Source: a virus
Lineage: Duplodnaviria > Heunggongvirae > Uroviricota > Caudoviricetes
DNA length: 64,000 bases
Virus record (IMG/VR): IMGVR_UViG_3300042398_001353
Strand: one strand, 5' to 3'
Below the pieces are notes generated by a model that worked only from the letters and a program-made list of their open reading frames with translations, was not told the DNA's origin and did no database searches. This document shows positions 11,606 through 25,866 of this stretch, piece after piece (within the stretch, counting starts at the first letter, position 1; every line of letters starts with the position of its first letter). The translations under genes and the position numbers were made by a program.

Positions 11606-12568
11606 ATGAAATCAATTTATTTAACAAGTGCAGACACTAGATTTATTTATGACAACCTAAAAAATCATGGACATTATGAATGGTTTGTAATATTAAGATG
11701 TGTTGAGGAGATGCAATGTGATTACACATTCTTTTCAACTTTAACCTGGGCTGATATATTATATAATAACGAGATTACAGATGCCGGTGGTGGAAAATAT
11801 GCAACATATGAAGTATCAATTAAATTAAAAGATGAAGTAAGTGAAATTGTTGATATATTAGATATCACTGATCTTAATCAACTCATTTGTGGTAAATTAG
11901 CGTCGGTAACAGCTAGAGAATTATATAAAAAATTATGTGAATATGAATGTATAAAACAATATCAAAGCTCCGGTATTAAAATTAGAATAGATTCATTTGG
12001 TGAGTATCGTGTTGATAAAGATGGAACTAAAATATATGCTGAAAAGAAACTCGATTCTAATTTAGATGTAAATGGTGAAGAAAAGGTTAAACTATATTCA
12101 TTATATGTAGCTGAATGGGCAGATAAAATGGCACATAAAAGACCCAAAGGATTTGAACTTAAAAGCTATGACAAAAAAGTTGGAGTTGCTGGTAATGTTG
12201 ATGAAAGAATGAAAACTTTATCAGTTGATAAAAGAAGTGGTGGAACGCTATCACCAATGTTTGTTAAAGCATTGAGAGCATGGCATTTACCTATAAAAGA
12301 ATGTATTAAACTTGAAACAAGAATACATGATTATCTTGATGATAGAAAAACAGGTGGTGAATGGTTTACTGATTACTATGAGGATGTAATTGAGATTGTT
12401 TTGATGAAGATAGAGGAAACAATTGAAAATGGAATAAATGTAGTTGAACTTAATATAGATAAGGAAACTGAAGATATTACTTTCTACGAGAAGATGCCAA
12501 GGGATTTTTGGTTTAAAACAAAACAAGAAGAAAATAATGATGATGGTCCAGTAATATATAGAATATAA
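11606..12568 (+). CDS. T5orf172 (GIY-YIG-like) domain protein, paralog of 19643..20419
   Basis: C-terminal DDRKTGGEWFTDYYEDVIEIV (GxEWF signature); N-terminus similar to 19643..20419 (YEWFVILRCVEEM vs YDFYIIIKCLTEL; TWADI vs TWDKL). Confidence 0.5.
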   Translation: MKSIYLTSADTRFIYDNLKNHGHYEWFVILRCVEEMQCDYTFFSTLTWADILYNNEITDAGGGKYATYEVSIKLKDEVSEIVDILDITDLNQLICGKLASVTARELYKKLCEYECIKQYQSSGIKIRIDSFGEYRVDKDGTKIYAEKKLDSNLDVNGEEKVKLYSLYVAEWADKMAHKRPKGFELKSYDKKVGVAGNVDERMKTLSVDKRSGGTLSPMFVKALRAWHLPIKECIKLETRIHDYLDDRKTGGEWFTDYYEDVIEIVLMKIEETIENGINVVELNIDKETEDITFYEKMPRDFWFKTKQEENNDDGPVIYRI

Positions 12569-12853: not shown

Positions 12854-13073
12854 TAAAGTTAGATTCAACAAAAGGGAAGCTAAAGCTGCTTTAAATCTAT
12901 TAAAAGATAGCAATAAACCCTGGAGAAGAGAATCTAGGTATTATCATTGTCCAATATGTAACAATTGGCATTTAACATCTAAAGATAGAGAAGATAGTAG
13001 AGTAAAAGAAATTAAATTGATAAATGAAGATCAATGGTTAAGACTCTTAAGTAAAGACACAGATCTCCTCTAG
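12822..13073 (+). CDS. small zinc-ribbon protein
   Basis: C..(~33 aa)..HCPICNNWH: probable treble-clef/zinc-ribbon fold. Confidence 0.35.
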   Translation: MRMKKEKVICNKVRFNKREAKAALNLLKDSNKPWRRESRYYHCPICNNWHLTSKDREDSRVKEIKLINEDQWLRLLSKDTDLL

Positions 13074-13362
13074 AAGAATTTACTCTCAACTTTGACTAAC
13101 CCAACGAGCTTCGGTTAACCAGATTTAATCCTCAACAGATCGTTCCCCATATTAACCTTATAAACGTTGACCTCTTTTGTAGTTGGTACGTCTCATTCCT
13201 ATTTAGAACTACCCCACCAATTAGACCCATACTCTCAATTTCTGAATTACCCTCTGGGCGAAAGCCTTCCTTTTTCTGTCAGAAAACCTACAGAAAATAA
13301 ATACGAGAAACTGGACAAAAAGTAAATAAATTGTTAATAAAAATTTAATATAATGCCACGTC

Positions 13363-13394
13363 AGAGCCCTTGAGCACTTTATGCGAAAGGGCGA
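13363..13394. repeat. 32-bp direct repeat, copy 1 (AGAGCCCTTGAGCACTTTATGCGAAAGGGCGA)
   Basis: Identical to 23388..23419; contains a 6-bp inverted repeat gccctt/aagggc. Confidence 0.85.
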
Positions 13395-13416
13395 ACATAA
13401 TGATATTTATAAACAG

Positions 13417-14109
13417 ATGAAGATAGAAGCATTATTTATATCCGATGTTCATCTCGGATCAAAGGGATCAAACGCCGAAGGCGTTCTTGCGGTCCTAAAA
13501 CAATATCAACCGGAATATCTTTTCCTGGTTGGTGACATAATAGATGGGTGGTTATTAAAAAGAAAATTCCGTTGGCCACAATCTCACACAAATGTACTAA
13601 GAAAGATCTTATCACATTCTAAAAATGGGTGTAAAGTGATTTATATCCCAGGTAATCATGACGAATTCTTAAGAGAGTACGGGGAATTCTCTTTTGGAAA
13701 CATTGAGATTCATAATGAGTTCATATGGAAGAATACTTTCATAACCCATGGGGATCTTTATGACGGTGTGGTTAAATTAAAATGGTTAGGTATTCTTGGT
13801 TCAATTGGATATGATATGGCAATAACAATCGATAGAAGACTTAAGAAATTTGGGATGAAGAGGTCATTATCTAAGTTTTTAAAGGACAAAGTTAAGGAAG
13901 CTGTTAAGTTCATTACTCAATTTGAAATAGAATTAACTAGACAAGCTAAGAAACATCATTGCCATTCGGTAATATGTGGACATATACATCATCCAGAGGA
14001 CAGGATGGTTGATGGTATAAGATACTTAAACACTGGAGATTGGATTGAAAATCATTCATACATAACATACAACAACGGGGAATATAGATCACATGAATAT
14101 AAAGGATAA
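13417..14109 (+). CDS. LpxH-like calcineurin-type metallophosphoesterase (UDP-2,3-diacylglucosamine hydrolase family-like)
   Basis: LFISDVHLGS...EYLFLVGDIIDGW...IYIPGNHDEF parallels the E. coli LpxH N-terminus (LFIADLHL...LYILGDLFEAW...GNHD). The track start 13381 lies inside the 32-bp repeat, so ATG 13417 (MKIEALF) is preferred. Confidence 0.5.
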   Translation: MKIEALFISDVHLGSKGSNAEGVLAVLKQYQPEYLFLVGDIIDGWLLKRKFRWPQSHTNVLRKILSHSKNGCKVIYIPGNHDEFLREYGEFSFGNIEIHNEFIWKNTFITHGDLYDGVVKLKWLGILGSIGYDMAITIDRRLKKFGMKRSLSKFLKDKVKEAVKFITQFEIELTRQAKKHHCHSVICGHIHHPEDRMVDGIRYLNTGDWIENHSYITYNNGEYRSHEYKG

Positions 14110-14815
14110 ACTAACAATTGTAATTCCATCCAAAAACGAAGAAAAATATATTGAAAGAACAATAGGGTGTTTGGTTAAACAATATGGAATAAAGGGGACT
14201 AAGGTTATTGTTGCTGACAATTACAGCAAAGATAAAACCAGAGCAAAAGTAATTACACTAAGAGAAACCTATAGGGATATATTAAATATTGAGTTGGTTA
14301 ATGGTGGCAATGTTGCATATGCCAGAAATTATGGTTCACATTTAGCAAAAACAAAATATGTTTTATTTCTGGATGCTGATTCTGTAATCATTGATCCATC
14401 AAACATACAAGATAATATAAAATTAATGGAAAATGATAAACTGGATCTTATGACCTGCAAGGTAAAATCTGTTGGTAAAGATATAAGAACAGCAATAGCA
14501 TTTAAGTTATTCAATATTGTTAATAAGTTTGTCAGCATAAAGACACCCTTTGCGGTCGGCACATATTTTCTAACCAGAGCAGATAGATTCAAGAAGTTAG
14601 GTGAATTTGATATAACATTGCAGCACTCTGAAGATTATTATTTGAGTAAGAAATATAAAACAAATAAATTTAAAATATCCAAGCATTTCATTGGGCAAGA
14701 TGATCGCAGGTTCAAAAAGATGGGTTATACCGGAATGGTTAAGCTACTTATTAAAGGTTACATTAACAGGGATAACAAGGATTTCTTTAAAAAAGATATA
14801 GGATATTGGTTATAA
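14093..14815 (+). CDS. family 2 glycosyltransferase
   Basis: LTIVIPSKNEE...VIVADNYSKDKT...LFLDADSVI: GT2 (GT-A) motifs including DxD. Confidence 0.65.
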   Translation: MNIKDKLTIVIPSKNEEKYIERTIGCLVKQYGIKGTKVIVADNYSKDKTRAKVITLRETYRDILNIELVNGGNVAYARNYGSHLAKTKYVLFLDADSVIIDPSNIQDNIKLMENDKLDLMTCKVKSVGKDIRTAIAFKLFNIVNKFVSIKTPFAVGTYFLTRADRFKKLGEFDITLQHSEDYYLSKKYKTNKFKISKHFIGQDDRRFKKMGYTGMVKLLIKGYINRDNKDFFKKDIGYWL

Positions 14816-14870
14816 ATTTGGAATTGCCATTTTTTTTATCTATACTAGATTAAAAAGAAGACACACCCAA

Positions 14871-15776
14871 ATGAAATTAGCTATTGTTGATATTGAAACC
14901 ACAGGATTTGTAAGGGAAAAGAACAATTCCATTGTGGAAATTGCCATTGTTTTATGTGACACGGAGACCAGAAAGACGGAGATCCTGTTCAACAATATCG
15001 TTAGGGAAAGCACACTCAGTGACTATCATAAAAGATCCTGGATATTTGATCATTCTGATTTAAGATTCAGCGATGTTGAACGCGCTCAGGACATCAATAC
15101 ATACAGAGCAGAGATTCAAGCTATACTAGACAAATACAAAGTAACAGCCTATAACAAGAAGTTTGATATGGGTTGGTTATCCAGTCTTGGTTTCAGGTAC
15201 AAAGAAAGCAAATGTTTAATGGAAACTGCTAGTGAATATGCTAAAGTTCTTCTTGACGAGGAAATAAGTCTTAAGGAAGAAAATGTATATAGATGGTTAA
15301 TGCAAGATAGAAACTATGTGGAGAAGCACAGAGCATTACCAGATGCATTAGATGAAGCTCAGATATTATATAAGCTATGTGACTTTGCTGAAGATCCCAT
15401 TATCAAGGAAAGTATTGATCAGCTAAGAACAAATAAAACTATTTCAAAAGTTAATAGACATATTAATGAGGATGCATTTAAGCCGGCACCCAAAGAATAT
15501 AAAAGTAACAAAGAAGTTAGTCACGATCCAAAAACATTTGAAGATAAATTTGACTATACCAAGAAAACCATTGAGGTTTTATTATCTGAATATGATATCA
15601 TCTCAATGATTGTATTGGATGAACCAGCAAAAGCCACATTCAGTTATAAAGGTAAGATGTATATCTTTTATTATAATGCCGGTAGATGGGGAATGATGAA
15701 AGGTAGTCAACAACCAGAAAAATATTATTTTTGCAAAGATCCAGATGATCTTTTCACAAGATTTTTAAATAAATAG
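14871..15776 (+). CDS. DEDDh 3'-5' exonuclease domain protein, paralog 3 (N-terminal exonuclease + C-terminal extension)
   Basis: Exo I AIVDIETTGF; Exo III HRALPDALDEA. Confidence 0.65.
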   Translation: MKLAIVDIETTGFVREKNNSIVEIAIVLCDTETRKTEILFNNIVRESTLSDYHKRSWIFDHSDLRFSDVERAQDINTYRAEIQAILDKYKVTAYNKKFDMGWLSSLGFRYKESKCLMETASEYAKVLLDEEISLKEENVYRWLMQDRNYVEKHRALPDALDEAQILYKLCDFAEDPIIKESIDQLRTNKTISKVNRHINEDAFKPAPKEYKSNKEVSHDPKTFEDKFDYTKKTIEVLLSEYDIISMIVLDEPAKATFSYKGKMYIFYYNAGRWGMMKGSQQPEKYYFCKDPDDLFTRFLNK

Positions 15777-15777
15777 G

Positions 15778-16344
15778 ATGGAATTTTTTAACTATAAATT
15801 AACTGAGAAGGATAAAGAATATTGTTCAGTCCATGCAAAGAAGATGGCTGAAGGGTTTTCAACATATAGCTTTAAGAATGATGAGAAACAATCTCTTGAT
15901 GTATACAACATAGGAAAGATTGGTGAATTTGCTTTCTTTAAGTTCTTAAGTAAGCTTGAAAGAAAGAATATGTTAAAGATTAAACATGTTCCATTCAGGG
16001 AGAACTATGATAAGTTAAACTTTAAGGATGATTATATCATTGAGGTTAATGGTAAGGAAGTTCAGATCGAAGTTAGAACAAAAGGTAGAAACGTTGGGCC
16101 AGAATTGGAATATGAATGTTGTACTGATTGTATCAAACCGCATTTTGTTTATGTTTTCATATCATTTAATAAACAAACTGATGTTGTTAGTGTTCTAGGG
16201 TATGCTAACTGGGATAATTTCAAAGAGCATGCTGAAGTTACATTAAAAGGAAACACTAATAGTAACTTTAAAAATAAGGTTAATGAATTTAATATAAAAA
16301 TTAAGTTCTTAAATGAGATAAATGACATAGTAAATTTAAATTAA
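15778..16344 (+). CDS. hypothetical protein
   Basis: 188 aa; D...EVNGKEVQIEVRTK is a weak PD-(D/E)xK-like pattern only. Confidence 0.35.
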   Translation: MEFFNYKLTEKDKEYCSVHAKKMAEGFSTYSFKNDEKQSLDVYNIGKIGEFAFFKFLSKLERKNMLKIKHVPFRENYDKLNFKDDYIIEVNGKEVQIEVRTKGRNVGPELEYECCTDCIKPHFVYVFISFNKQTDVVSVLGYANWDNFKEHAEVTLKGNTNSNFKNKVNEFNIKIKFLNEINDIVNLN

Positions 16345-16347
16345 ACA

Positions 16348-16587
16348 ATGAAGTTCGCGTATAAAATATCATTGGAGCTGGAGTTAGAGTTTGAAGCACC
16401 GTTACTTGGTGCTGATACAACTGTGTTTAGAAGAAGCCAATCAGATAAATTATTCAAGGAAGCTGTCAAAGAACTTCTTAAAGATAAGAAACAAACGGTA
16501 AACTCTTTTAATAAAAATGTCGATGAAGAAAATTTAAAAGGAACCATAAAAGGTTTGAAATATCTTCAAGGCGCAGTAAAAAAATAA
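16348..16587 (+). CDS. hypothetical small protein
   Basis: 79-aa ORF, tightly packed in the operon. Confidence 0.3.
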   Translation: MKFAYKISLELELEFEAPLLGADTTVFRRSQSDKLFKEAVKELLKDKKQTVNSFNKNVDEENLKGTIKGLKYLQGAVKK

Positions 16588-16592
16588 CAGTT

Positions 16593-17174
16593 ATGAAAAA
16601 CAGATCATTAGTTACAGCACTGAGACAATTCAGTCCAGATTTAAAGATTAGCCTCAAAGCGCATTTACAATATGGTTGCGAAGAGGTTGGTTATGGTTCA
16701 GGGGAGTATGAGGGATTAAGTTTCTCTCAAGATTATACCATTGGATGGAACGATGGCTACCTAAGTGCTGATACTTGGGATGGTTACACCGTTCAAGATT
16801 TAATTGATGTGTTATTGGAAAAAACATTATCAAAGATCTCTGATGCTGACTTTGGTTTAAGACCGGGTGAGCTTAGAAATGGTAATCCAGAATACACAAC
16901 AACATGGGATGATGAAGAGCCATCAGAAGATGATATGCCAGAAGATAGTGAATTATATAACATCATGGAGATTGGTGATGCTGATTATAAGTTCCAAGGT
17001 CCACATGCTTTGGAAATCGAAGTATATTATAAGGATCAAGATGGTGATGAAGCGTCGATATCATTTAGTTTAGATAGTGATGAATCAGATAGAAAGCCAG
17101 ACCCATTAGATCCAGTTGCAAAAAAGAAAGCACCATTAAAAAAAGCAGCAAAGAAAGCAGCAAAAAAGAAATAA
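16593..17174 (+). CDS. acidic protein with histone-H1-like basic tail
   Basis: D/E-rich body and C-terminal KKKAPLKKAAKKAAKKK. Confidence 0.4.
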   Translation: MKNRSLVTALRQFSPDLKISLKAHLQYGCEEVGYGSGEYEGLSFSQDYTIGWNDGYLSADTWDGYTVQDLIDVLLEKTLSKISDADFGLRPGELRNGNPEYTTTWDDEEPSEDDMPEDSELYNIMEIGDADYKFQGPHALEIEVYYKDQDGDEASISFSLDSDESDRKPDPLDPVAKKKAPLKKAAKKAAKKK

Positions 17175-17175
17175 C

Positions 17176-17364
17176 ATGAAACTATTTGAATACAAACAGA
17201 TCACTAAGATGGATTATATTAATCAAGCTCTATTATCCCAAATGGGCAAAGAGGGTTGGGAACTTATCCTATGTGATGTTGGCACATACATCTTCAAAAG
17301 AGAAATGGAATCGTTACCAGAAGAAAATGAGTTTGATGATTATGGTATGAGAATTAAACAATAA
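17176..17364 (+). CDS. DUF4177/DUF1737-like small protein
   Basis: MKLFEYKQI...GKEGWELI pattern typical of this small-protein family. Confidence 0.35.
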   Translation: MKLFEYKQITKMDYINQALLSQMGKEGWELILCDVGTYIFKREMESLPEENEFDDYGMRIKQ

Positions 17365-17368
17365 ACTT

Positions 17369-17701
17369 ATGTCTCCAATAAAAATTGTCAAAGATACTGA
17401 AGTGGAATATAGATTTATAACAAACTATTATGATGTTCCATTGCGTGGGTCTTGCTATTATCTTGGCAAGTTATATTCTTTCATGCGTAAAGATGATGGA
17501 AATTATCTATATTTGTTTTATCTAAATAAAAAAGGTGAAAGCAAATGGAAATGGAAACAGTTTTGGTTTGAACAATGCGTTGGCTATCATTGGAGTTGGT
17601 TCCCGAAGAATAGACATGATAAGTTCTATTATAGAAACCCACAATGGTTATATAAGTTATTGTTTAAACTATATTATAAATTAAATAAGAATGCTAGATA
17701 A
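17369..17701 (+). CDS. hypothetical W/Y-rich protein
   Basis: 110 aa, KWKWKQFWFEQCVGYHWSWFPKN. Confidence 0.3.
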   Translation: MSPIKIVKDTEVEYRFITNYYDVPLRGSCYYLGKLYSFMRKDDGNYLYLFYLNKKGESKWKWKQFWFEQCVGYHWSWFPKNRHDKFYYRNPQWLYKLLFKLYYKLNKNAR

Positions 17702-18290
17702 TATAGATTTAATTAAACCGCTGCTAACCTTTGATAAAGAGGGTGACTTCTATATGCTATATGTATTCAAGCGAAAGAAGGATCAGCCGGAAGGAGAAAG
17801 GGATAATCATCAGTCGGTGAGAACCATTAAAGCATATTGTGTTGACTCTATTGCATATCTCGATAAGCGATATGACGAAATTAAACAACTATGTGAGGTG
17901 TTCAAAGCAAGAGCATATATTCATGTAGCCAAGCAAAACCATATGGATGTATCAATGAATATGATCACAGAGATTGTCACCAGGATTCAATCCGGACAGA
18001 TCAATCAACAACATGTATTTGATTCTGTTGTTGGTCAGATAAAAACAACGGAGAAGAGATGGATCATTGATGTGGATGATAAAAATGTTAGAGGATTGGT
18101 ACCCATCACTTCATTCATCCATTCGTTAAGACCTGAAGGTGATAAACTGGAAGCTTGTATACCAACAAGGAATGGTTATCATCTAATCACAAAAAGGTTT
18201 GATGCACAAATGTTTAAGAAGGAATTCCCAAGCATCGATATCCAAAAGAAAAATCCAACATTATTATATTATCCAAATTCATTAGATTAA
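17691..18290 (+). CDS. hypothetical protein
   Basis: 199-aa ORF; no motif recognised. Confidence 0.35.
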   Translation: MLDNIDLIKPLLTFDKEGDFYMLYVFKRKKDQPEGERDNHQSVRTIKAYCVDSIAYLDKRYDEIKQLCEVFKARAYIHVAKQNHMDVSMNMITEIVTRIQSGQINQQHVFDSVVGQIKTTEKRWIIDVDDKNVRGLVPITSFIHSLRPEGDKLEACIPTRNGYHLITKRFDAQMFKKEFPSIDIQKKNPTLLYYPNSLD

Positions 18291-18469
18291 AAATATGAAA
18301 AGATTATTCTCAAAATTTATAGAATGTAGATTTTATGATAGAGTAAATGGTAGGGCAGTTAACTTGTATCAATGTAAAGATGGTAGTTACTTTCTTGCGC
18401 ATTCTAAATTTGATTCATTATTTTTTTATACAACATTATGAAAGAAAATACATTTAAAAAAACAATAAC

Positions 18470-18589
18470 ATGATATATCTATACGGAATCATAATCGGGA
18501 TGCTACTAACCGCGCTCGTCGCGGTGGTAGGTACATTTCAAATGCTTAAACAACTAAACGATGAAGGGGAGACTACACAAGAAGGATAA
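18470..18589 (+). CDS. 39-aa single-TM micro-protein
   Basis: MIYLYGIIIGMLLTALVAVVGTFQMLKQLNDEGETTQEG; below the ORF-track cutoff; speculative. Confidence 0.25.
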   Translation: MIYLYGIIIGMLLTALVAVVGTFQMLKQLNDEGETTQEG

Positions 18590-18767
18590 CAACTGGATGG
18601 TTGAGATGGATGGGATCGGGGATCTACAATTGCACCCAGATGTTGTTAAGGAATTTAAAGAATGGGAATTGATGTTTGATAATATCGAGGCCAGAATATT
18701 AGCACAACCATATGCGGACTTTGAGCTTGTTGATGGATGTGCAAGACTAATAAACAAAACAGAATGA
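18561..18767 (+). CDS. hypothetical small protein
   Basis: 68-aa ORF. Confidence 0.3.
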   Translation: MKGRLHKKDNNWMVEMDGIGDLQLHPDVVKEFKEWELMFDNIEARILAQPYADFELVDGCARLINKTE

Positions 18768-18967
18768 TAATAGCATTAGCAATGTATTGGTTAATCACAA
18801 CCATATACGCAACCTACTGGTTGGTAAAGAACCCATCTAATAGAACATATGAAGATCCGGAGTATGTGACCCTACTAGAAATACTGGCCAAGTTCTTCGT
18901 GTGTTTAATATTGGGTCCGTTCTTTGTACCCATAGCACTATTAAGCACAATAAGATTTAAGAGATAA
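18737..18967 (+). CDS. small membrane protein
   Basis: Two TM segments (IIALAMYWLITTIYATYWLV; FFVCLILGPFFVPIALL). Confidence 0.35.
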   Translation: MCKTNKQNRMIIALAMYWLITTIYATYWLVKNPSNRTYEDPEYVTLLEILAKFFVCLILGPFFVPIALLSTIRFKR

Positions 18968-18972
18968 TAGAT

Positions 18973-19635
18973 ATGTTAAAGATATACCAATACCTTAGAA
19001 GGTCAACACATCACCAAAAATACTCTTTATTAATCCAAAGAGAGATTATGGATTTATATATTAAAGAAAATCCAAACACATATGAAGTTATTCAAATAAT
19101 TGAGGACACATCATCAGCAACGAATGTTAATAGACCAGAATTTATAAAAATTATGAATATTTGTGTAGAAAATAATGGTTTTTTAATGGTTACTCATTTG
19201 GATAGATTAACCAGAAGTGTTAGTGATTTTGATAATATAATCAGTAAGGGGTTAAAAATAATATCTTTAGATTGTTTATCAGCAACAATTGAAGACATGA
19301 GATTTAAGGTATTAATGTCTGAGATCGCCACGAAAAGAAATAATAAAGCAACTTCGGATGTTTTAAAACATATAGGAAAATATAAAAAACTTGGTAATCC
19401 TAATGGATGGAAGGATGTACAAATAAAAGCTCAAGCGACCAGGGTGGGTAAAATGAAAGAGTGGATCTTAGGTAGCCATGAGATCTATGAAACGATATGT
19501 AGATTCCCTTCATTAAGTAAAGCCGCAGCTTTTTTAAATAATAATGGATATAAAGCATTTAGAGGTAAACAGTGGCAAACTACTCAAGTCAGTACATTCA
19601 TCAAAAAATATAATGAATATGTTTTAAATAACTAA
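18973..19635 (+). CDS. small serine recombinase (resolvase/invertase type)
   Basis: YLRRSTHHQ (Y-x-R-x-S-T-x-x-Q, catalytic Ser), DTSSATNVNRPEF and LDRLTRS match resolvase catalytic-domain signatures; probable C-terminal HTH. Confidence 0.75.
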   Translation: MLKIYQYLRRSTHHQKYSLLIQREIMDLYIKENPNTYEVIQIIEDTSSATNVNRPEFIKIMNICVENNGFLMVTHLDRLTRSVSDFDNIISKGLKIISLDCLSATIEDMRFKVLMSEIATKRNNKATSDVLKHIGKYKKLGNPNGWKDVQIKAQATRVGKMKEWILGSHEIYETICRFPSLSKAAAFLNNNGYKAFRGKQWQTTQVSTFIKKYNEYVLNN

Positions 19636-19642
19636 AGATATA

Positions 19643-20419
19643 ATGAAAAGAACATACATAACTAAAGATGAATTAAAATCTCTTTTAAACATCATTAAAA
19701 GGGATAAAAAATATGATTTTTATATTATTATTAAATGTTTAACTGAACTTAATGTTGGTTATAAAGTTCTTGAAAAAATGACTTGGGATAAGTTGGCTAT
19801 TGCTTTAAGTGATAGAAAAGATTTATATAACGAACTGGTTGAATTCAGAGACATTGCCAACTCTAAACGTAAATCCTACAAGGTAAACAATATTGTCCAA
19901 ATTAGTAATCGTTACTTTAATGAGAAAATAAAAGAGTATCAAAGATATGCTGGTATATCAAGAAGTGTAAACATAAGTAGTAAAATATTTGGTAGTAGAA
20001 TTTATTTGGAATCCGGTGAAGTGCATGGGGTTATAGAATATGTGAAAAAGAATAAATTAGCTGAACCGCCTAAAAATAACTTTTTATATGTGGTTAGACA
20101 TAAACACAGGGATGATATGATTAACACGCTTTTAAAAGATAAAAAAATTGGAATAACTAATGATTTAAACCACAGAATAAAAGGATTAACATTAGGACCA
20201 GTAGAGATAGAATGTTTAAAAGTTTGGAAAATTGATTTTTCTTTTATTCATAAAGTGGAGAAGATTTTACACAAAAAATTTGAAGATAGAAAAATTATTG
20301 GTGAGTGGTTTGAGGATATGGACAACAATATAGTACAGGAAATAGAAAAGGAAATAATGCTTCTTAGGTTATTGGAAATTGATATAGAAGAAATTGATAA
20401 TGATAATCTTATTATCTAA
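19643..20419 (+). CDS. T5orf172 (GIY-YIG-like) domain protein
   Basis: FLYVVRHKHRD ... IGITNDLNHRIKG ... DRKIIGEWFEDM: T5orf172/MUG113 signature. Confidence 0.6.
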   Translation: MKRTYITKDELKSLLNIIKRDKKYDFYIIIKCLTELNVGYKVLEKMTWDKLAIALSDRKDLYNELVEFRDIANSKRKSYKVNNIVQISNRYFNEKIKEYQRYAGISRSVNISSKIFGSRIYLESGEVHGVIEYVKKNKLAEPPKNNFLYVVRHKHRDDMINTLLKDKKIGITNDLNHRIKGLTLGPVEIECLKVWKIDFSFIHKVEKILHKKFEDRKIIGEWFEDMDNNIVQEIEKEIMLLRLLEIDIEEIDNDNLII

Positions 20420-20790
20420 ATGGTAGCAAACAATCCCTGCAAGATATAGGATAGCTTATATCCAGCAAACGCCCCAAGCGCCGACGGTATTGGAAAGACA
20501 ATAAGTTTACCAAGATCTGTTACATATTTGGGACGATTCACGATTCTACCCATAAAGAAATAATATGCAAGATAACCAAGAATAACCATAAGATCCATTC
20601 TTGTTGATATAAACACCACAATGGTTGCACCAAGGAATCCAAAGATAAAGTTATCTCTAACTCCCTCCAATACTTCCTTAGGACCACAGTCCTTCCACTC
20701 CTTAACCATTTTTTGAAATTGCTTTTTAGCCATATATATAAATAGATATAAAACAAACCACAATATAACTATGGAAAAAATAATTGGCAA
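20416..20790 (-). CDS. multi-pass membrane protein (lone - strand gene inside the + strand block)
   Basis: 124 aa, 3-4 hydrophobic helices. Confidence 0.4.
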   Translation of the reverse strand: MPIIFSIVILWFVLYLFIYMAKKQFQKMVKEWKDCGPKEVLEGVRDNFIFGFLGATIVVFISTRMDLMVILGYLAYYFFMGRIVNRPKYVTDLGKLIVFPIPSALGAFAGYKLSYILQGLFATI

Positions 20791-20989
20791 CTACAAAGTA
20801 TTCATGGAAACCATCCTAGACCCAGAAGGAGAAGTGATATACCATAAGGTAATCTCACCAATGTTCAAAGGTAAGGTATTAGAGCTAATGTATGAAGATG
20901 ATCTAACAGAAGATGTTATCAAAAAGCATATACAAGTAACAAACAATCACTATGAGTTAGATGATTGGTATCCAGATTCACACATTTAA
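20771..20989 (+). CDS. hypothetical small acidic protein
   Basis: 72-aa ORF. Confidence 0.3.
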   Translation: MEKIIGNYKVFMETILDPEGEVIYHKVISPMFKGKVLELMYEDDLTEDVIKKHIQVTNNHYELDDWYPDSHI

Positions 20990-21099
20990 CCATTAATTAA
21001 CACAAGAACGCGCACGTCCCTATATATGTGGTGTGAATTTTTTTTGTGATATCAAGGATTTTTTCTACATTCGCATATCAATAACATAAAAAAACTGAT

Positions 21100-21561
21100 A
21101 TGAATATCTTTTATCTGGACAACTCGCCAACCAAATGCGCGCAATATCATAATGATAAGCATGTGGTTAAAATGATCCTGGAGACCGCTCAACTACTATG
21201 TAGCGCCCACTGGGTAACAGGATCTTCCGCCCCATATAAACTATCCCATGCAAACCACCCATCTTCCAAATGGACCAGACAAGATTTGCATAACTATATA
21301 TGGCTATGTGAACTGGGCATCCAACTATGCTACGAATATAAACATAGATACGGGAAAACCCATAAGTCATATGATATAATCCTATGGTGCTGTGATAATC
21401 ACCCAAAGATACCAGATATCAAATTCACCCACCCACCTCTAGCTATGCCAGATGAATATAAGTCTATCAACCATGTACAGTCCTATAGAGATTATTATAT
21501 GGGAGAGAAAAGAACATTTTCCACATGGAAACATAGAGATATCCCTACATGGTTTAACTAA
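21100..21561 (+). CDS. Cys/His-rich hypothetical protein
   Basis: MNIFYLDNSPTKCAQYHNDKHVVKMILETAQLL ... LWCCDNHPK; conserved-looking N-terminal block, family not identified. Confidence 0.4.
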   Translation: MNIFYLDNSPTKCAQYHNDKHVVKMILETAQLLCSAHWVTGSSAPYKLSHANHPSSKWTRQDLHNYIWLCELGIQLCYEYKHRYGKTHKSYDIILWCCDNHPKIPDIKFTHPPLAMPDEYKSINHVQSYRDYYMGEKRTFSTWKHRDIPTWFN

Positions 21562-21570
21562 AACAATATT

Positions 21571-21909
21571 ATGAAAAGCAATAAAGAAATACTAGAATAC
21601 CTGAAACCCTATACAGAAATGGATGGGATATTCCTACCCACAAAGATAGTAGTATATGAGAAATATAATAACCAACTCATAGTAAAGATAGACATTAAAG
21701 GATCTTTTGATAAACTAGAAAAACCATTAGCCAAAGCAGATGCTATAAAACAAATGCTCAGAACTAATGGATTCCTATATCACTACTATTCAGATTCCTA
21801 TAATAGACCATGGTTTAAAAAGGATTGGCCTAAGGAGAAAAAGAAAGAAACAGCTAGAGAAAGATATGAGAGAACCCTAAGGATGATGAGATTAATAGGT
21901 CATTCTTAA
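21571..21909 (+). CDS. hypothetical protein
   Basis: 112-aa ORF. Confidence 0.3.
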   Translation: MKSNKEILEYLKPYTEMDGIFLPTKIVVYEKYNNQLIVKIDIKGSFDKLEKPLAKADAIKQMLRTNGFLYHYYSDSYNRPWFKKDWPKEKKKETARERYERTLRMMRLIGHS

Positions 21910-21961
21910 ATTTGGAAATCCGAAAATAATCCCTTATATTAGATAAAAAAACAAAAACATT

Positions 21962-22429
21962 ATGGAACAAAAAACAATTTCGGAAATCATTTCCGGCCAA
22001 AAAGTAAGCTCATTAAACATGAGAGAAAAAATAAAAACAATGTCTGATGCTGAGCTTGAGCAATTTATATTGGCAAGACTAGGCTTTGACGGTACCTATG
22101 ATGAGGACGGGCGAACAAATCATTTAAGATTTGATATGTCTGGAATGTCTGAAAGGTTTATCTGGTTAAAAGAATCTAGACAGATGATGGACTTGTTCAT
22201 TGATTGTGGGATATATGATAGAGTGGTTTTTATTCATGTGGATGCATATAAGGGTGGAATGCATATGTTCTATAAATGGTGGGAAGATGATGACTATTTC
22301 CATACCGATGGTGAATCAACAGTACAGGTTATGGACTTAACCAATATGGGGACAAGAGAAATACTTAAAACCATTATACAATTCTTTTGTATTGATAACC
22401 AAGATAAAAAACAAAGAAGATTAAATTAA
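21962..22429 (+). CDS. hypothetical protein
   Basis: 155-aa ORF. Confidence 0.3.
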   Translation: MEQKTISEIISGQKVSSLNMREKIKTMSDAELEQFILARLGFDGTYDEDGRTNHLRFDMSGMSERFIWLKESRQMMDLFIDCGIYDRVVFIHVDAYKGGMHMFYKWWEDDDYFHTDGESTVQVMDLTNMGTREILKTIIQFFCIDNQDKKQRRLN

Positions 22430-22436
22430 AAACATT

Positions 22437-22706
22437 ATGGAAAAGAGTAGATACAACGAAATCAAAGAAGAGGCTGAAAGAAGAGTAAAGCTATGGGTAG
22501 AAAATACCTCATTCTCTGAAATGACCGTTAGCGGATCAAGACTAAGATTCAATATGGGAATCGGTGCCATGGGTTATCCATTCCAAAAAGAAGAATGGAT
22601 GGGCGAAGATGACTTTAAAAGCTTTGTTACAGAAGAAGAATTTGATTCCCCACAGTATGATGAAATAGCTGATGGGTTGTTTAAGAAGTACTATGATCTA
22701 GATTAA
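22437..22706 (+). CDS. hypothetical small acidic protein
   Basis: 89-aa ORF. Confidence 0.3.
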   Translation: MEKSRYNEIKEEAERRVKLWVENTSFSEMTVSGSRLRFNMGIGAMGYPFQKEEWMGEDDFKSFVTEEEFDSPQYDEIADGLFKKYYDLD

Positions 22707-22708
22707 TT

Positions 22709-23389
22709 ATGGGTAGAAAACTAAATGTCACTATTGGTGAACGGTTTGGTATGCTAACCATCATAGAATATCTTGGACTGTTTAATAAAGCAAAAAAAGT
22801 TGTTTGTAAATGTGATTGCGGGAATACCACAACAAAATACTATAGCAGTTTAACATCTAAAGATAGTAAATCCTGTGGCTGTGATATATTAGTACCATTA
22901 ATATCCGGTACACGTTATGGTAAACTTATTGCAGTTGAAGAACTTAAAAACAACAAGTCCAGAAAAAGATTAATAAAATGTCAATGTGATTGTGGGAATG
23001 AAAAAATTGTTTCATATGGTAATCTAAGGAGTAATAATACTAGATCCTGCGGTTGTTTAGTTATCCCACCCAAAAATACAAAAATAACCCATGGGAAAAC
23101 AAGAACCATTGAATACAATTCATGGAAAGCAATGAAAAGAAGATGTTATGATATAAACCATAAATCATATAATCACTATGGAGGAAGAGGTATTATTGTA
23201 TGTGATAGATGGTTAGAACTAGATGGTAATGGTTGTTCTAACTTCATACTAGATATGGGACTAAGACCGTCAAGCAAATATTCATTAGATAGAATAGATG
23301 TTAATGGTAATTACGAACCTAGTAATTGTAGATGGGCAACCCCTAAACAACAAGCAAATAATAAAAGACAAAAACAACCATCACACTAG
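22709..23389 (+). CDS. HNH homing endonuclease with tandem Cys4 zinc-finger repeats
   Basis: Two CKCDCGN...SCGC repeats, then KSYNHYGGRGIIVCDRW and SLDRIDVNGNYEPSNCRWATPKQQANN (HNH_3-type core). Confidence 0.65.
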   Translation: MGRKLNVTIGERFGMLTIIEYLGLFNKAKKVVCKCDCGNTTTKYYSSLTSKDSKSCGCDILVPLISGTRYGKLIAVEELKNNKSRKRLIKCQCDCGNEKIVSYGNLRSNNTRSCGCLVIPPKNTKITHGKTRTIEYNSWKAMKRRCYDINHKSYNHYGGRGIIVCDRWLELDGNGCSNFILDMGLRPSSKYSLDRIDVNGNYEPSNCRWATPKQQANNKRQKQPSH

Positions 23390-23419
23390 AGCCCTTGAGC
23401 ACTTTATGCGAAAGGGCGA
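23388..23419. repeat. 32-bp direct repeat, copy 2
   Basis: Identical to 13363..13394; overlaps the TAG stop of 22709..23389. Confidence 0.85.
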
Positions 23420-24200
23420 CCCTATATGTTCACTTTTGTTCTCTGTTCACGATCCGTGAACAACGGTATTTTGTGAACACCAGCTTCCTGGTTTGGCGCG
23501 TTTTTACTTCTGTATTTGGCACAATAATAAGCCTTAAATCTGCACAATAGAAGTATGCCAAAAAGTCCATATTTATGCAAATATATGCATATAATACTGA
23601 CATAATTGGTACTGAAAACATCGTAGCTAATTTTATTGCGTTTAGAGCCCCGTTAGGGGCATTTTTTTGGCTGGCTGTATTACAATCGCAAAAAGTGGGA
23701 AAAAATGTTAATAAGTGGGAACCACCCAGGAAGTGTCCCTTGTGTGAATCACGACCCACAAAAAAAATTATTTGGAATTTATATAGTTTTATTTAAGCTC
23801 GCCCACCCCCATAAAGGGGTCGCGGGCTCGCCTGCTTGCACCGGCCGGTGTATGACAGGTCATTAAAAGTGTTTAATGTATGGGCCTAAAAGTTAAACAA
23901 AATAAAGGGGTGTCATACGGCTCCGCAGGACGAGCCCAGTATGGTACTGGGCGAGCCTATACTGGTGTCATACGCAATTTAAAATAGTTTTATTTAGAAT
24001 GCTCGCCGGTCAGTACCATACTAACCGGCTCGCTGTTGGACCGTCATACAGTGGCCCAGGTCATACGGCGCCCATAAGTCATACGCATAAAAAAACCCAG
24101 AGGGTTAGTCTGGGCGTGATACAGGGCGAGGACCAGTATGGTACTGGTCCGAGCATCTATTATTTTAAACTTATGTCTACTGCGATGTTGTCATACGGCT
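23420..24200. repeat. convergent non-coding region with iteron arrays (candidate ori/pac/regulatory)
   Basis: 7 copies of GTCATAC(G) (23850 inverted; 23912, 23967, 24043, 24060, 24078, 24190), ~8 copies of GCTCGCC/GGCGAGC, 4 copies of GTTCAC/GTGAAC (23440-23500), two near-identical hairpins ccagtatggtactgg (23934..23952, 24130..24150). Confidence 0.6.
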
Positions 24201-24858
24201 GCCACTCGATCGGGGAATAATCTCTGAGCATATCTTCTACGCTTCTCCTCATATCGTTTGGTGTTGGTGTTTTAGGATCTTTACCGTCATACGTGACTCT
24301 TACTTTGAATGTGATACCTGGAGCCAGAGTTTCCTGGTGTCTTTTGGCTGTACCGTTTGCTTGGTAGGTTATGGAAATTGGAACGCCGTCTATTGAGGTT
24401 ACATTTTTTTGAATGTACTTAATGAGTTTAACCATTTTATTTAAACGAACTTGGATCTTTCTGTTAACTTCTTCCAGGTCCATTTTTTTATTTAGATTTA
24501 TTTTAATTTTGTTCATTAGGGTGTTTAGTGATTGGAGGCCGAAGTCTTTTACTTTGTCAGCTCCCATGATCATACTACTGATCTCACCCAGGTGTTCATA
24601 CTCTTCCATGATGACCTTGTTGATCATCCACTCTGAGTCATCTATTGCTGTGCCGGCCACTTCTACTATGTGACCCATTGCGTACATGTATAAATCGACA
24701 CCTACGTAAGGTGGAATGTTTTCAATGAACAGTGAGACTGCTACAATGTTATCGTCTCCCAGAGATCCGGTTTTGATATAGATCCTGTATTGGTATGGTC
24801 CATCTTTGTAGACTACGCCGGCCAGTTGGCCAAAGTCTGGTTCTTGCTTTTCTTTCAT
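24160..24858 (-). CDS. hypothetical protein
   Basis: 232-aa ORF; first gene of the - strand block. Confidence 0.4.
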   Translation of the reverse strand: MKEKQEPDFGQLAGVVYKDGPYQYRIYIKTGSLGDDNIVAVSLFIENIPPYVGVDLYMYAMGHIVEVAGTAIDDSEWMINKVIMEEYEHLGEISSMIMGADKVKDFGLQSLNTLMNKIKINLNKKMDLEEVNRKIQVRLNKMVKLIKYIQKNVTSIDGVPISITYQANGTAKRHQETLAPGITFKVRVTYDGKDPKTPTPNDMRRSVEDMLRDYSPIEWQPYDNIAVDISLK

Positions 24859-24872
24859 AATATATAAATATT

Positions 24873-24905
24873 AAAAAAAGGGGATCCGATTCCTCAGGTC
24901 CCCTT
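24873..24905 (-). terminator. rho-independent terminator (- strand)
   Basis: aagggga/tcccctt stem with 14-nt loop; on the - strand it is followed by TTTTTTT. Confidence 0.5.
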
Positions 24906-24930
24906 CTTTGAACAAACATATAGATGAAGC

Positions 24931-25119
24931 TTATACCGCCGTCTTAAGAAGTGAGTTACGGTACATTACTGCAGCACGTTTAGAACTTAAGTTCTTGCTG
25001 TAGCGCTCTCCGTTAAGGATCATTCTTACACGATAGCTTGTGCCATCAAAGTAAATGTTTGGTCCCACTGACTTATAAACTGTCAATGGTGTGGATTTGG
25101 TTGTTCTTTGTTTTTTCAT
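24931..25119 (-). CDS. small basic protein (possible DNA-binding)
   Basis: Track ORF trimmed to the MKKQRTTKST start (25119); the 5' extension runs through intergenic sequence. Confidence 0.35.
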   Translation of the reverse strand: MKKQRTTKSTPLTVYKSVGPNIYFDGTSYRVRMILNGERYSKNLSSKRAAVMYRNSLLKTAV

Positions 25120-25192
25120 AACATTTATTAATTTATAATAAAATATACGAAAAAAATCTGGAATAAAAAAATCCTGGGGGAATATAATTAAT

Positions 25193-25819
25193 TTAATCTT
25201 CTTGCTTCGACTGCAGGAACTCGCAGTAGTTGCAGGACCCATCCGATTCTAGCTCGGCCCCGCATTCCATACAATCAGGTTCACCTTCCGATTCGTCATC
25301 GGCGGATTGATCAATGAATACTAGTTGAAGCGCGACCACTTTATCATCAACCTCAGCCCCATACACTGGATACATCCCGTCACCCCAGCCGCTGCTGCTA
25401 ACAGCTCCTGCGTCATACGCACCCCAGCCTGATTCACCTAAGGTAAACTTGCACATCTTCTCATACCAGGCGTCACCTTCTAGATCCCGTCCAGGTAATA
25501 CAAAGTCAACATATGGAGTTTGAATCGCTTCTGCAGCAGAATCATTCCTGTATGACGCCGCATCAAACACTCCCGCTTGGCCGCTGTCGACGCCGAAGTC
25601 CCCGAACCAGTCATACACAAGATCCTTGGTAATCTGGTGATCCTTGTGAACCAGGAATAGCTCAGCGTTCCTGTTGGTTCCCTGCTTCTCATCATAGATC
25701 ATTGAAACGATCCATTCACCAGGTAATACATTGGTTAGTTTGGTTTGGCACCAGGTTGGTACACTGTAGCAAGGGTCCGTTACATATACTTCGGGCCCTA
25801 GGTTAATTGTCTTTGTCAT
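25193..25819 (-). CDS. hypothetical protein with acidic Cys-rich C-terminus
   Basis: 208 aa; ...DDESEGEPDCMECGAELESDGSCNYCEF. Confidence 0.4.
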   Translation of the reverse strand: MTKTINLGPEVYVTDPCYSVPTWCQTKLTNVLPGEWIVSMIYDEKQGTNRNAELFLVHKDHQITKDLVYDWFGDFGVDSGQAGVFDAASYRNDSAAEAIQTPYVDFVLPGRDLEGDAWYEKMCKFTLGESGWGAYDAGAVSSSGWGDGMYPVYGAEVDDKVVALQLVFIDQSADDESEGEPDCMECGAELESDGSCNYCEFLQSKQED

Positions 25820-25866
25820 AGTAAAGATTTTAGATTAGGTGGAAAGTTAAGAATAATTTCTTGAAA

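Follow-up and report, generated by a model that had tools for sequence, protein, structure and literature searches.

Covarying hairpins at gene-module edges and at a non-coding hub in uncultured freshwater phages: a candidate strand-specific boundary signal

Two identical 32-bp copies and the non-coding hub

The 64-kb stretch of tailed-phage DNA analysed here (the window) contains the 32-mer AGAGCCCTTGAGCACTTTATGCGAAAGGGCGA on the + strand at 13363-13394 and 23388-23419 and nowhere else, as the original prediction had stated. No further match with up to three mismatches was found in the window, nor any in 100 dinucleotide-preserving shuffles, and identity between the copies extends over 35 of 37 nt. 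Chance does not explain two identical 32-mers. The surroundings also agree with the earlier description: an ORF-free stretch of about 300 nt precedes copy 1 (13074-13362, longest ORF at most 52 aa), copy 2 shares 2 nt with the TAG stop codon of the HNH gene (22709-23389) and stands at the start of the non-coding iteron region, and the genes listed between the copies are all present, encoding a Metallophos phosphoesterase, a GT2, an RNase_T exonuclease, a Resolvase-domain serine recombinase, a T5orf172 protein and the HNH protein. The features are as follows.

13074..13362, no strand: non-coding stretch (~290 nt) before copy 1, 94.6-96.9% identical in 6 relatives
13363..13394, + strand: copy 1 (A), CTTTAT-loop hairpin, exact match; stem-loop proper 13366-13392
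13404..13419, + strand: TATTTATA promoter-like motif with the phosphoesterase ATG (13417), recurring across the window
23388..23419, + strand: copy 2 (B), left border of the non-coding hub, exact match; 51.0 bits against covariance model R1
23420..24160, no strand: non-coding hub between converging + and - gene blocks, from the sequence and the marked map
23647..23670, + strand: intrinsic terminator inside the hub, GCCCCGTTAGGGGC then a T-run
23783..23796, - strand: promoter-like motif TTAAATAAAACTAT, immediately after a - strand hairpin
23797..23831, - strand: third, diverged family member (GCCCGC-GA-CCCC-TTTAT-GGGG-GTGGGC); R1 40.8 bits, E = 5e-9
23930..23956, + strand: second hairpin family, copy 1; fold z = -3.7
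23984..23997, - strand: second copy of the TTAAATAAAACTAT-type promoter-like motif, right after a second-family hairpin
24001..24033, - strand: second hairpin family, copy 2; fold z = -6.0
24095..24115, - strand: intrinsic terminator closing the - gene block
24124..24153, + strand: second hairpin family, copy 3; fold z = -5.2

Copy 1 scores 51.8 bits against R1 (E = 4e-12). In 6 relatives with 73-89% identity in the flanks, its 35 nt are unchanged or differ at a single flank position. The non-coding stretch before it is confined to the copy-1-bearing lineage and shows no covariation and unremarkable folding (z = +0.5 and +0.6). The TATTTATA motif starts 10 nt past the end of copy 1. This motif followed by 3-6 nt and an ATG is recurrent in the window, often after intrinsic terminators (hairpin plus T-run); a looser pattern, TATTTAT[AC], counts 27 such promoter-like sites.

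Relatives have homologous hubs, at identities that go down to about 70%. Its elements are GTTCAC and TTTGGC repeats, GTCATAC iterons and a conserved core (23675-23760) with AAGTGGGA twice. The eight iterons (23850, inverted, 23913, 23967, 24043, 24060 and 24078, plus 24191 and 24287) are interleaved with hairpins, among them the second family, built as stem, AGTA-TGG-TACT, stem within GCGA...GAGC flanks. Both - strand promoter-like motifs in the hub directly follow a strong hairpin, and the TTAAATAAAACTAT motif is fused to the ATG before at least 10 genes of the - block. The third CTTTAT-family member, which lay beyond the view of the original prediction, has a fold energy of -21.5 kcal/mol. 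It stands opposite copy 2 on the far side of the conserved core and, read in the - sense, is immediately followed by a promoter-like motif.

A covarying hairpin family independent of the recombinase

The 6-bp inverted repeat GCCCTT/AAGGGC noted earlier is part of a longer fold, a 27-nt hairpin with a 6-bp G+C stem, tandem GA/GA, a 2-3-bp inner stem (GCA/TGC) and a CTTTA(T) loop. The folding free energies are -14.3 kcal/mol for RNA (z = -4.2) and -8.3 kcal/mol for DNA (z = -4.3). The family layout reads A, 6-bp G+C stem, GA, GC, (N)CTTTAT loop, GC, GA, returning stem, G. The window has three members, and a scan of 29 related loci found 80 in 22 of them (2-7 copies per genome), clustered at the hub and in the adjoining accessory region. 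The carriers are an uncultured group of freshwater phages, with the hairpin at gene-module edges and in the non-coding control region. The hairpin has no match in Rfam, and none of 185,579 bacterial and archaeal species genomes contains its canonical sequence.

Across 29 distinct variants in a fixed register, 92.7% of stem positions pair; shuffles reach 70% and slid controls 28-52%. Most alignment members had been picked with a stem requirement, which favours pairing at 4 of the 9 pairs. Double-sided changes occur at 8 of the 9 pairs, with the loop fixed and the GA mismatches invariant. In an unbiased check, all 7 flanking register pairs were found in 32 of 106 distinct CTTTATG contexts compared to 1 of 201 control heptamers. 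The covarying stems argue for selection on intrastrand pairing and not on a double-stranded recombinase site.

This bears on the central proposal of the original prediction, that the copies are crossover sites at which the enclosed small serine recombinase excises the 10 kb. The window's two copies are indeed identical and in direct orientation, each forms an imperfect 11+5+11 palindrome as duplex DNA, and the enzyme appears catalytically intact, with an intact RRSTHHQ serine motif, a DRLTR motif and a Resolvase domain at E = 1e-14. Nevertheless, tblastn finds the recombinase in the window only and in none of the 36 other loci tested, among them all related loci collected up to that search. 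Those relatives carry the 80 hairpins, and the hairpin is retained at both sites. In the closest relative, which lacks the recombinase, two copies lie 11.8 kb apart with partly different genes between them and differ at 3 positions, 2 of which form one compensatory stem pair. The shared sequence is just 32-37 bp, without accessory subsites and with a central spacer of odd length, the bracketed segments differ in content and range in length from 0.5 to 11.8 kb, and 14 contigs of the window's own population show parental junctions only. Excision by this enzyme is thus largely refuted and in our view highly improbable; the recombinase is probably a strain-specific passenger. The fallback readings of the same prediction, a reused signal or the mark of a mobile cassette, fared better and come close to the explanation favoured below, so that the prediction as a whole is partly supported.

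A proposed boundary signal and its alternatives

A family member at the hub junction is present in L011-L015, L018-L020, L022 and L027-L033. The hub-border hairpin lies about 0-80 nt (mostly 9-54) past the last + gene in every lineage with a member there, while the identity of that last gene varies between lineages. By comparison of these loci, copy 2 is the ancestral copy and copy 1 an extra copy specific to one lineage. The phosphoesterase-GT2 genes occur in other lineages without an upstream hairpin copy, and the lineage of L011, L019 and L029 has a canonical intrinsic terminator, not the hairpin, at the orthologous phosphoesterase junction.

We tentatively favour a strand-specific boundary hairpin in terminator position that doubles as portable homology for module exchange, an explanation to which we give slightly less than an even chance. 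The hairpin would form in single-stranded nucleic acid, most likely the transcript, and would mark the end of a unit directly before the next promoter-like motif or before the non-coding hub. Copy 2 would close the + strand gene block at the hub border, and copy 1 would occupy the terminator position ahead of the phosphoesterase-GT2 unit. Without a U-tract behind it, the hairpin does not qualify as a canonical intrinsic terminator; together with the invariant loop and GA mismatches, this points to a phage or host factor that would read the hairpin for termination, 3′-end formation or insulation. A canonical terminator already lies 10-15 nt 5′ of the hairpin at position 8066 of L019 and at the - block end in L011, L012 and L018. 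Accordingly, a pure terminator role would be redundant in at least two independent contexts. An invariant loop is unusual for terminators, and inward-facing opposite-strand hub pairs beside iterons fit an origin equally well.

As the same 27-50 nt stand at several junctions, they offer portable homology, and accessory modules may be gained, lost and swapped at the hairpin by homologous recombination. Such exchange would account for the different gene sets bracketed by direct copies, which enclose 486 nt in L031, 805 nt in L018, 2,784 nt in L019, 10,025 nt in the window and 11,757 nt in the closest relative, with different gene content in each. An insertion in L019 is missing in L014, and homology restarts about 15 nt upstream of the hairpin. 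The PeSL cassettes of T4-type phages, compared below, offer a precedent for such exchange.

These breakpoints at the 5′ edge of the element, the direct copies around 1-4 accessory ORFs in L018, L019, L031 and L033, and a structure kept while the stems vary, recalling integron attC, could also mean that recombination is the primary function: capture or excision of gene cassettes, with folded single-stranded DNA read by some recombinase or with general phage recombination yielding mini-circles. We consider this unlikely. Neither a tyrosine integrase nor an HUH enzyme turned up in the window or, in 10 loci, up to 10 kb from the hub on each side. A genome has no more than 1-2 cassettes, and the - strand copies and the paired hub layout are left unexplained. 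Sharp breakpoints are also expected if the hairpin is the hub's first essential element.

The main rival to the boundary reading, with a modest but real chance, is that the hub is a replication origin and the hairpins act as its signals in single-stranded DNA. After unwinding, opposite-strand hairpins would direct priming or loading for outward synthesis, and copy 1 would be an outlying extra site. The eight iterons lie among the hub hairpins together with AT-rich tracts and the conserved core, and inward-facing pairs (+ left, - right) flank the core and the iteron box in every lineage. Distant lineages have hairpins with a GAAA loop at the equivalent hub positions, one distant relative (L025) has a perfect DnaA box (TTATCCACA) in its hub, and the phage has a gene for a DnaA_C-domain protein. 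Loop and GA mismatches are both strand-specific features. DNA mini-hairpins gain stability from sheared G:A pairs, and ssi hairpins are recognised by RepB′ of RSF1010. However, no primase, helicase or polymerase was found among the window's 96 ORFs (about 30 kb of the genome lies outside the window), that the hub is an origin is itself something we infer, and an origin function would not lead one to expect the exact placement of the non-hub copies at gene junctions, in terminator positions.

Finally, the hairpin could be a DNA promoter for a phage-specific RNA polymerase, starting transcripts of the phosphoesterase unit, the accessory cassettes and the non-coding hub. As in phage N4 early promoters, the loop and inner bases are conserved and the stem positions are constrained only to pair (PMC4496689). 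There are few copies per genome in one region, some contexts have a terminator immediately upstream, as expected at the start of a unit, and a semi-conserved TAYAYT lies 5-8 nt 3′ of the hairpin. We nonetheless regard this as very unlikely: the window yielded no gene for an RNA polymerase, with a sub-threshold vRNAP_dom_2 match (E = 0.006) as the sole hint, copy 1 and the - strand hub hairpins already have ordinary promoter-like motifs downstream, and in L018 a terminator comes only 25 nt after the hairpin. The element also differs in size, with 27 nt and a 5-7-nt loop against the 5-7-bp stems and 3-nt loops of N4.

Comparison with known systems

The ssiA/ssiB sites of the IncQ plasmid RSF1010 and the primosome assembly sites near the ColE1 origin are conserved hairpins of ~30-40 nt on opposite strands, which adjoin iterons and AT-rich DNA and have strand-specific recognition features. 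The phage hairpins share this opposite-strand layout, its neighbourhood and the strand specificity. Unlike at those sites, no RepB′-like primase was identified here, extra copies lie kilobases away at gene junctions, and the hub is a putative origin. Bacterial REP/BIME elements are G+C-rich imperfect palindromes, extragenic, located at gene 3′ ends and clustered in alternating orientation, all of which recalls the present family; the phage element differs in its low copy number, its invariant loop and the absence of a RAYT-like gene.

The res/hix/gix sites of small serine recombinases resemble the window's copies as short imperfect palindromes directly repeated around a serine recombinase gene, but here sites and enzyme do not co-occur across relatives, the centre is of odd length, accessory subsites are lacking and the half-sites covary. 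The hairpin promoters of the N4 virion RNA polymerase are likewise present in few copies per genome, with some bases conserved, others merely paired and a sheared G:A pair involved. All of them point the same way at the genome end, and they depend on a giant virion polymerase; neither trait is seen here.

Another parallel is with the PeSL (promoter-early stem-loop) terminator/promoter cassettes of T4-type phages, which mediate indels and mini-circles (Arbiol, Comeau and Krisch 2010, PMC2839356; Comeau et al. 2014, PMC4122927). The unit here is a hairpin with a few flanking bases compared to ~100 bp of promoter plus terminator, it has an invariant loop, two G-A mismatches and covarying stems, and it occurs in 2-7 copies per genome compared to dozens. 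Its copies are also paired on both strands inside an iteron-bearing non-coding hub, and any terminator or promoter activity or mini-circles are putative. Both elements are repeated intergenic stem-loops with a G+C-rich stem and an adjoining promoter motif, found mainly in the variable (hyperplastic) genome region with copies flanking accessory ORFs, and in both cases indel differences between relatives end at the element, with no need for a dedicated recombinase.

The repeated hairpin and its family

The 32-mer AGAGCCCTTGAGCACTTTATGCGAAAGGGCGA occurs at two places as an exact match:

13363-13394, + strand: copy 1 of the 32-mer
23388-23419, + strand: copy 2 of the 32-mer

Searching the window at up to 3 mismatches returned no further match, nor did 100 shuffles, which bears out the original observation of a 32-bp direct repeat at two sites only. 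Sequence agreement between the copies extends over 35 of 37 nt. The inverted repeat gccctt/aagggc pointed out in each copy is likewise recovered by the fold, which extends further inward: a 6-bp stem (GCCCTT/AAGGGC) is followed by a tandem GA/GA internal loop, a GCA/TGC stem and a CTTTA loop, giving a hairpin of 6+2+3 bp with a loop of 5-7 nt. Folded as RNA, the 32-mer has a free energy of -14.3 kcal/mol (z = -4.2); folded as DNA, it has -8.3 kcal/mol (z = -4.3).

Rather than a private duplication, this repeat is a conserved element. Its core 27-mer is 100% identical in 1 IMG/VR contig and 13 metagenome contigs, the flanks of which are only 68-91% identical to the window. Relaxed searches revealed a family of variants on both strands which keep the inner sequence GA-GC-N-CTTTAT-GC-GA while the outer stem varies with compensation (GCCCTT/AAGGGC, GCCCCT/AGGGGC, GGCCCT/AGGGCC, GCCCCC/GGGGGC, GGCGCC/GGCGCC, GGCCGC/GCGGCC, ACCCTT/AAGGGT and GCCCGCC/GGCGGGC). 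Inner pairs also swap, from G-C to C-G and from C-G to T-A. When 29 distinct variants are aligned without gaps, 92.7% of the cells are paired compared to 70% in shuffles and 28-52% in slid registers, and both sides have changed in 8 of the 9 pairs. Most members of this alignment were chosen with at least 4 stem pairs adjoining the core, which biases four of the outer pairs; the remaining outer pairs and the inner pairs, free of that selection, covary too. With selection on the heptamer alone, all seven flanking register pairs are found in 32 of 106 distinct CTTTATG contexts versus 1 of 201 for control heptamers. The hairpin is strand-specific and selected for pairing, and its loop and G-A mismatches are invariant.

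A covariance model built for the family finds 3 members in the 64-kb window, namely the two copies and a diverged member on the - strand (23797-23831), and 80 members in 22 of the 29 related loci scanned. It finds none in a more distant lineage (L023-L026, L034-L036), where other hairpins, with GAAA and other loops and GCGAG...CGAGC flanks, stand at the same positions of the non-coding hub described below. A degenerate-pattern scan of viral contigs found only the single IMG/VR relative.

The canonical 27-mer has no match in 185,579 bacterial and archaeal species genomes (one genome per species); it was therefore not copied, at least in exact form, from a host attB site, CRISPR repeat or REP element. 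Nothing in the whole window reaches the gathering score of any Rfam family. At E ≤ 5 there is no match around copy 2, and around copy 1 only two, both off the hairpin, far below threshold and at chance level with E about 4.6 (a plant miRNA at 13253-13351 and a human lncRNA at 13023-13122). No tRNA or tmRNA was found. Many members are preceded at 2-4 nt by GGGATGY in one lineage set and GTTTAAGAY in another, neither of which occurs in the window lineage (loci with such motifs: L011, L012, L013, L018, L019 and L027; L031-L033). A coding role was rejected: the reading frame is not preserved, as the distance from the upstream GGGATG to the hairpin varies among copies, and the in-frame ATG in the copy 1 loop reaches a stop in L009. 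Judged by sequence, an anticodon-loop mimic, a group II intron domain 5 and a boxB/nut site were rejected for misfits in loop length, U33, GNRA loop or position relative to a terminator.

The window is phage-like and low in GC, and it has no cultured relative. Megablast against INPHARED with 12 kb gave no match, the phosphoesterase reaches at most 41% identity by tblastn, and the HNH gene is the only match in distant blastn against known phages. A cluster of RNA-repair type at 442-10396 encodes HAD_SAK_2, HAD_SAK_1, cREC_REC, tRNA_lig_CPD, two RNase_T exonucleases and a second Metallophos, with added matches to 2_5_RNA_ligase2, Acb1 and Tad3 in relatives. Four + strand genes (41718, 49216, 50442 and 51374) have similar 58-nt starts encoding an MKKxIKLTESELxxLVKK-like N-terminus, and these are paralogous N-termini in a presumed structural region.

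Relation to the enclosed serine recombinase

The genes between the two copies, among them a phosphoesterase, a GT2, an HNH gene and a small serine recombinase (18973-19635), had been listed correctly, and the copies were proposed to be the substrate on which this resolvase-type enzyme acts. We show that the hairpin is independent of the recombinase. Using tblastn with the 220-aa protein, the window is the sole match among 36 loci, and 80 hairpins are spread over the related loci in this set. Contigs encoding exactly this recombinase are fragments of the same strain at 100% identity; samples with this strain are JGI 3300059473, 3300043464, 3300042402 and 3300042383 and SRR27420420, SRR27419807 and SRR27420254. 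In the closest relative (L001 merged with L022), the bracketed gene set is partly different and the recombinase is absent; copy 1 is canonical, copy 2 reads GCCCCT-AA...GA-AGGGGC, and the two are 11,757 nt apart. The copies, identical in the window, differ there at 3 of 32 positions, all outside the loop and two of them compensatory.

Two T5orf172/MUG113 proteins, at 11606-12568 and 19643-20419, have similar N-terminal regions, the second lying directly downstream of the recombinase. The recombinase and this second protein look like a strain-specific insertion, since the closest relative has an unrelated 712-aa ORF instead.

The sites of serine recombinases are recognised as duplex, have conserved half-sites and a central dinucleotide (plus accessory subsites for resolvases) and co-occur with their recombinase across relatives. 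In contrast, the sequence common to both copies is only 32-37 bp long, with an 11+5+11 layout and an odd centre, its outer half-site bases covary for pairing, and the family does not travel with the enzyme. Within the window's own population only parental junctions were seen, in 7 contigs with the gene left of copy 1 and 7 with the HNH gene. The proposed check for deletion or circle joins found no hybrid junction in these 14 contigs or in 13 metagenome loci, a test of low power because assemblies display the majority form alone. Three Logan contigs end exactly within the 32-mer, as expected from a k=31 assembly graph branching at a 32-bp repeat. Given that no locus of the 36 other than the window has the enzyme, that the stems covary, that the brackets vary and that the junctions are parental, the resolvase claim is not supported, and we regard it as barely credible that the copies are crossover sites of the enclosed recombinase. 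In this case, a recombinase gene lying between perfect direct repeats is no evidence for an excisable element.

Unit boundaries, brackets and the non-coding hub

The exact 27-mer is found upstream of the phosphoesterase gene, as copy 1 is, in L001, L009, L010, L016, L017 and L021, and opens the non-coding sequence that follows the last + strand gene, as copy 2 does, in L011-L015 and L018-L020. Copy 1 indeed closes an ORF-free stretch (about 300 nt without real ORFs) and copy 2 overlaps the HNH stop codon, both as originally described. The 290 nt at 13074-13362 are non-coding, with no ORF above 52 aa, and are 94.6-96.9% identical in six relatives, a conservation beyond that of the neighbouring protein genes. 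They are C-rich on the + strand, opposing the local strand bias, and occur only alongside copy 1. A structured RNA in this stretch was rejected: there is no covariation, and the two strands fold with z-scores of +0.5 and +0.6.

Only one lineage has copy 1, which occupies a terminator position. The phosphoesterase-GT2 pair has no upstream hairpin in the L011/L019/L020/L029, L031-L033, L034/L036 and L023-L026 lineages. At the orthologous junction of L011, L019 and L029, a canonical hairpin-plus-T-run terminator is followed by GATATTTATAAACA-ATG, the same as 3′ of copy 1, which lies directly upstream of TATTTATA...ATG. In the non-coding region between the + and - strand gene blocks (the hub), the - strand hairpins stand 0-4 nt upstream of the ATAAAACTAT motif, and both - strand promoter-like motifs directly follow a strong hairpin. 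Based on these contexts, the family hairpin takes the place of the terminator in terminator-promoter junctions.

Such junctions are a general intergenic design of this phage. TATTTATA stands 3-6 nt ahead of ATG at 27 window sites (looser pattern TATTTAT[AC]; for example 40575, 42019, 44148, 45561, 47841 and, on the - strand, 24870), often directly after an intrinsic terminator (42019, 44148, 47841; - strand 24870 and 5142). At least 10 small - strand genes between 26031 and 36444 (e.g. 26056, 27814, 28662, 31046, 31516) have TTTAAAATAAAACTAT fused straight to their ATG, which suggests promoters giving leaderless or near-leaderless mRNAs; two copies of TTTAAAATAAAACTAT in the hub are not followed by an ORF.

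The hairpin is followed by GATCTAC, GTATTAC, GAACATA or GACCCTA and has no U-tract, and a consensus terminator scan calls neither copy. A canonical terminator lies 10-15 nt upstream of it in at least two independent contexts. No conserved -35/-10 pair was found within the repeated unit, that is, the hairpin and at most about 20 nt. A sigma-70 promoter upstream of or across copy 1 was rejected: L009 and L017 do not keep the upstream TATAAT, and TTGAGC is spaced 20-22 nt from it.

Copies of the family flank accessory ORFs in the window, L018, L019, L031 and L033, with at most 2 brackets per genome. Exact copy pairs are 805 nt apart in L018, around two small ORFs, and 2,784 nt apart in L019, around three; the bracket holds one 97-aa ORF (486 nt) in L031 and, between two different family members, four ORFs in L033. 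The L019 insertion is absent from L014, where homology picks up about 15 nt upstream of the hairpin, and comparing L014, L019 and L011, the ends of insertions and deletions coincide with the hairpin. The alternative offered originally, a reused signal or the mark of an accessory cassette, comes near the reading we favour. The HNH gene (22709-23389) is 66-71% identical in nucleotide sequence to HNH genes of Staphylococcus and Acinetobacter phages and is the sole part of a 7.9-kb query (19000-26900) shown matching known phages. This fits a mobile gene of homing type that has inserted exactly at the hairpin.

The + strand genes reach 23389 and the - strand block runs from 24160 to about 37400, leaving 770 nt of non-coding sequence. 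In every locus with a family member there, a + strand member follows the last + strand gene at a distance of about 0-80 nt (9-54 in most), and that gene varies by lineage: HNH in the window, unrelated ORFs of 357, 193, 114, 131 and 150 aa elsewhere. Hub members form inward-facing pairs, + strand to the left and - strand to the right of a conserved core (window 23675-23760), and a second inward-facing pair surrounds the iteron box in most lineages. The core contains AAGTGGGA twice and is recognisable even in lineages only about 70% identical. An invertible segment between the inward-facing hairpins was rejected, the core being oriented alike in all loci. The hub also contains eight GTCATAC iterons, converging intrinsic terminators, two promoter-like motifs of - strand genes and a second hairpin family, with covarying stems around AGTA-TGG-TACT and GC-GA...GA-GC flanks:

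23930-23956, + strand: second hairpin family
24001-24033, - strand: second hairpin family
24124-24153, + strand: second hairpin family

The tandem G-A motif is common to this family and the CTTTAT family. The region 23420-24300 is a candidate replication origin. Two of the eight iterons lie inside the 3′ end of the gene at 24160-24858, and a distant relative (L025) has a perfect DnaA box at about position 8785. The first 7 kb of the - strand block (24001-31000) have a G+C content of 40-43% versus 28-36% in most of the window.

A basic 62-aa protein encoded at 24931-25119 on the - strand, conserved at 59-98% identity across 39 protein clusters, was used to fetch the additional relatives L022-L036 and adjoins the hub in each of them. 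It matches nothing in Pfam; inspected by eye, the YRVR...NG...S motif recalls an AP2/integrase-arm DNA-binding fold, and the protein is a candidate hub-binding protein. The same hub and neighbour genes are found on contigs of 324 kb (L031, JGI 3300071517) and 193 kb (L032, JGI 3300071567), well above the 93-100 kb of the contigs from other relatives. They might result from concatemeric assembly, belong to a much larger relative, or represent an integrated or chimeric form.

Function and comparison with known systems

Both the covariation and the architecture of the hub are new and solid, and function is argued from positional analogy. The hairpin is a new, well-supported cis element in an uncultured freshwater phage lineage with genomes of about 93-100 kb, and it marks the edges of variable gene modules as well as the border of the conserved non-coding hub. 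By this analogy, the element would be a regulatory stem-loop that also marks module boundaries. The best reading, held tentatively and at not quite an even chance, is a boundary signal acting in the transcript that doubles as portable homology. From its place in front of the next promoter or the hub, the hairpin would act in factor-dependent termination, 3′-end formation or insulation, and as a short repeated sequence it would let accessory modules be exchanged there. Copies are few per genome and placed at unit boundaries and the hub.

The missing U-tract and the canonical terminators upstream count against the boundary reading, and the inward pairs beside iterons suit an origin equally. The main rival is a role as single-strand DNA in origin firing, as for the ssi hairpins of IncQ plasmids. 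As with IncQ-type ssi hairpins, members lie on opposite strands near iterons. No primase, helicase, RNA polymerase, HUH, Rep or tyrosine recombinase was found in the 96 ORFs of the window (about 30 kb of genome lie outside it), and the lack of a primase there counts against this role, which we consider unlikely. Both hairpin families might instead be sites for dedicated machinery reading folded single strands, either in origin priming or transcription or in integron-like capture in a lytic phage with no recognisable integrase. This is quite unlikely; if true, the accessory region that separates the GT2 gene from the hub would be a true cassette platform. With an origin or cassette-capture role, the element would be a signal read as a hairpin, of a kind new for a double-stranded DNA phage. 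If the boundary and exchange role is true, regulatory stem-loops doubling as recombination linkers, documented so far in T4-type phages, extend to an unrelated group, and the hairpin becomes a sequence tag for module boundaries and a likely origin in metagenomic phage genomes.

Among known elements, integron attC sites come with an adjacent IntI-type tyrosine integrase and cassette arrays. The hairpin has neither: no tyrosine recombinase turned up in the window, nor, for 10 loci, in the 10 kb flanking each side of the hub. A dedicated site for cassette capture, suggested by the bracketed ORFs, is very unlikely. N4 hairpin promoters have a 5-7-bp stem and a 3-nt loop (PMC4496689), dimensions that the longer stem and loop described here misfit, and they need a phage-encoded virion RNA polymerase, no domain of which is seen in the window; an N4-like promoter is highly improbable. 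Intrinsic (rho-independent) terminators differ in having a U-tract. The closest parallel to the boundary and exchange reading is offered by the PeSL (promoter-early stem-loop) terminator/promoter cassettes of T4-type phages, which give rise to module exchange and mini-circles without a dedicated recombinase (PMC2839356, PMC4122927). Unlike PeSL, the repeated unit carries no sigma-70 consensus promoter. Like PeSL, the hairpin is an intergenic stem-loop directly upstream of a recurrent promoter motif, with copies that flank accessory ORFs and indels that end at the element.
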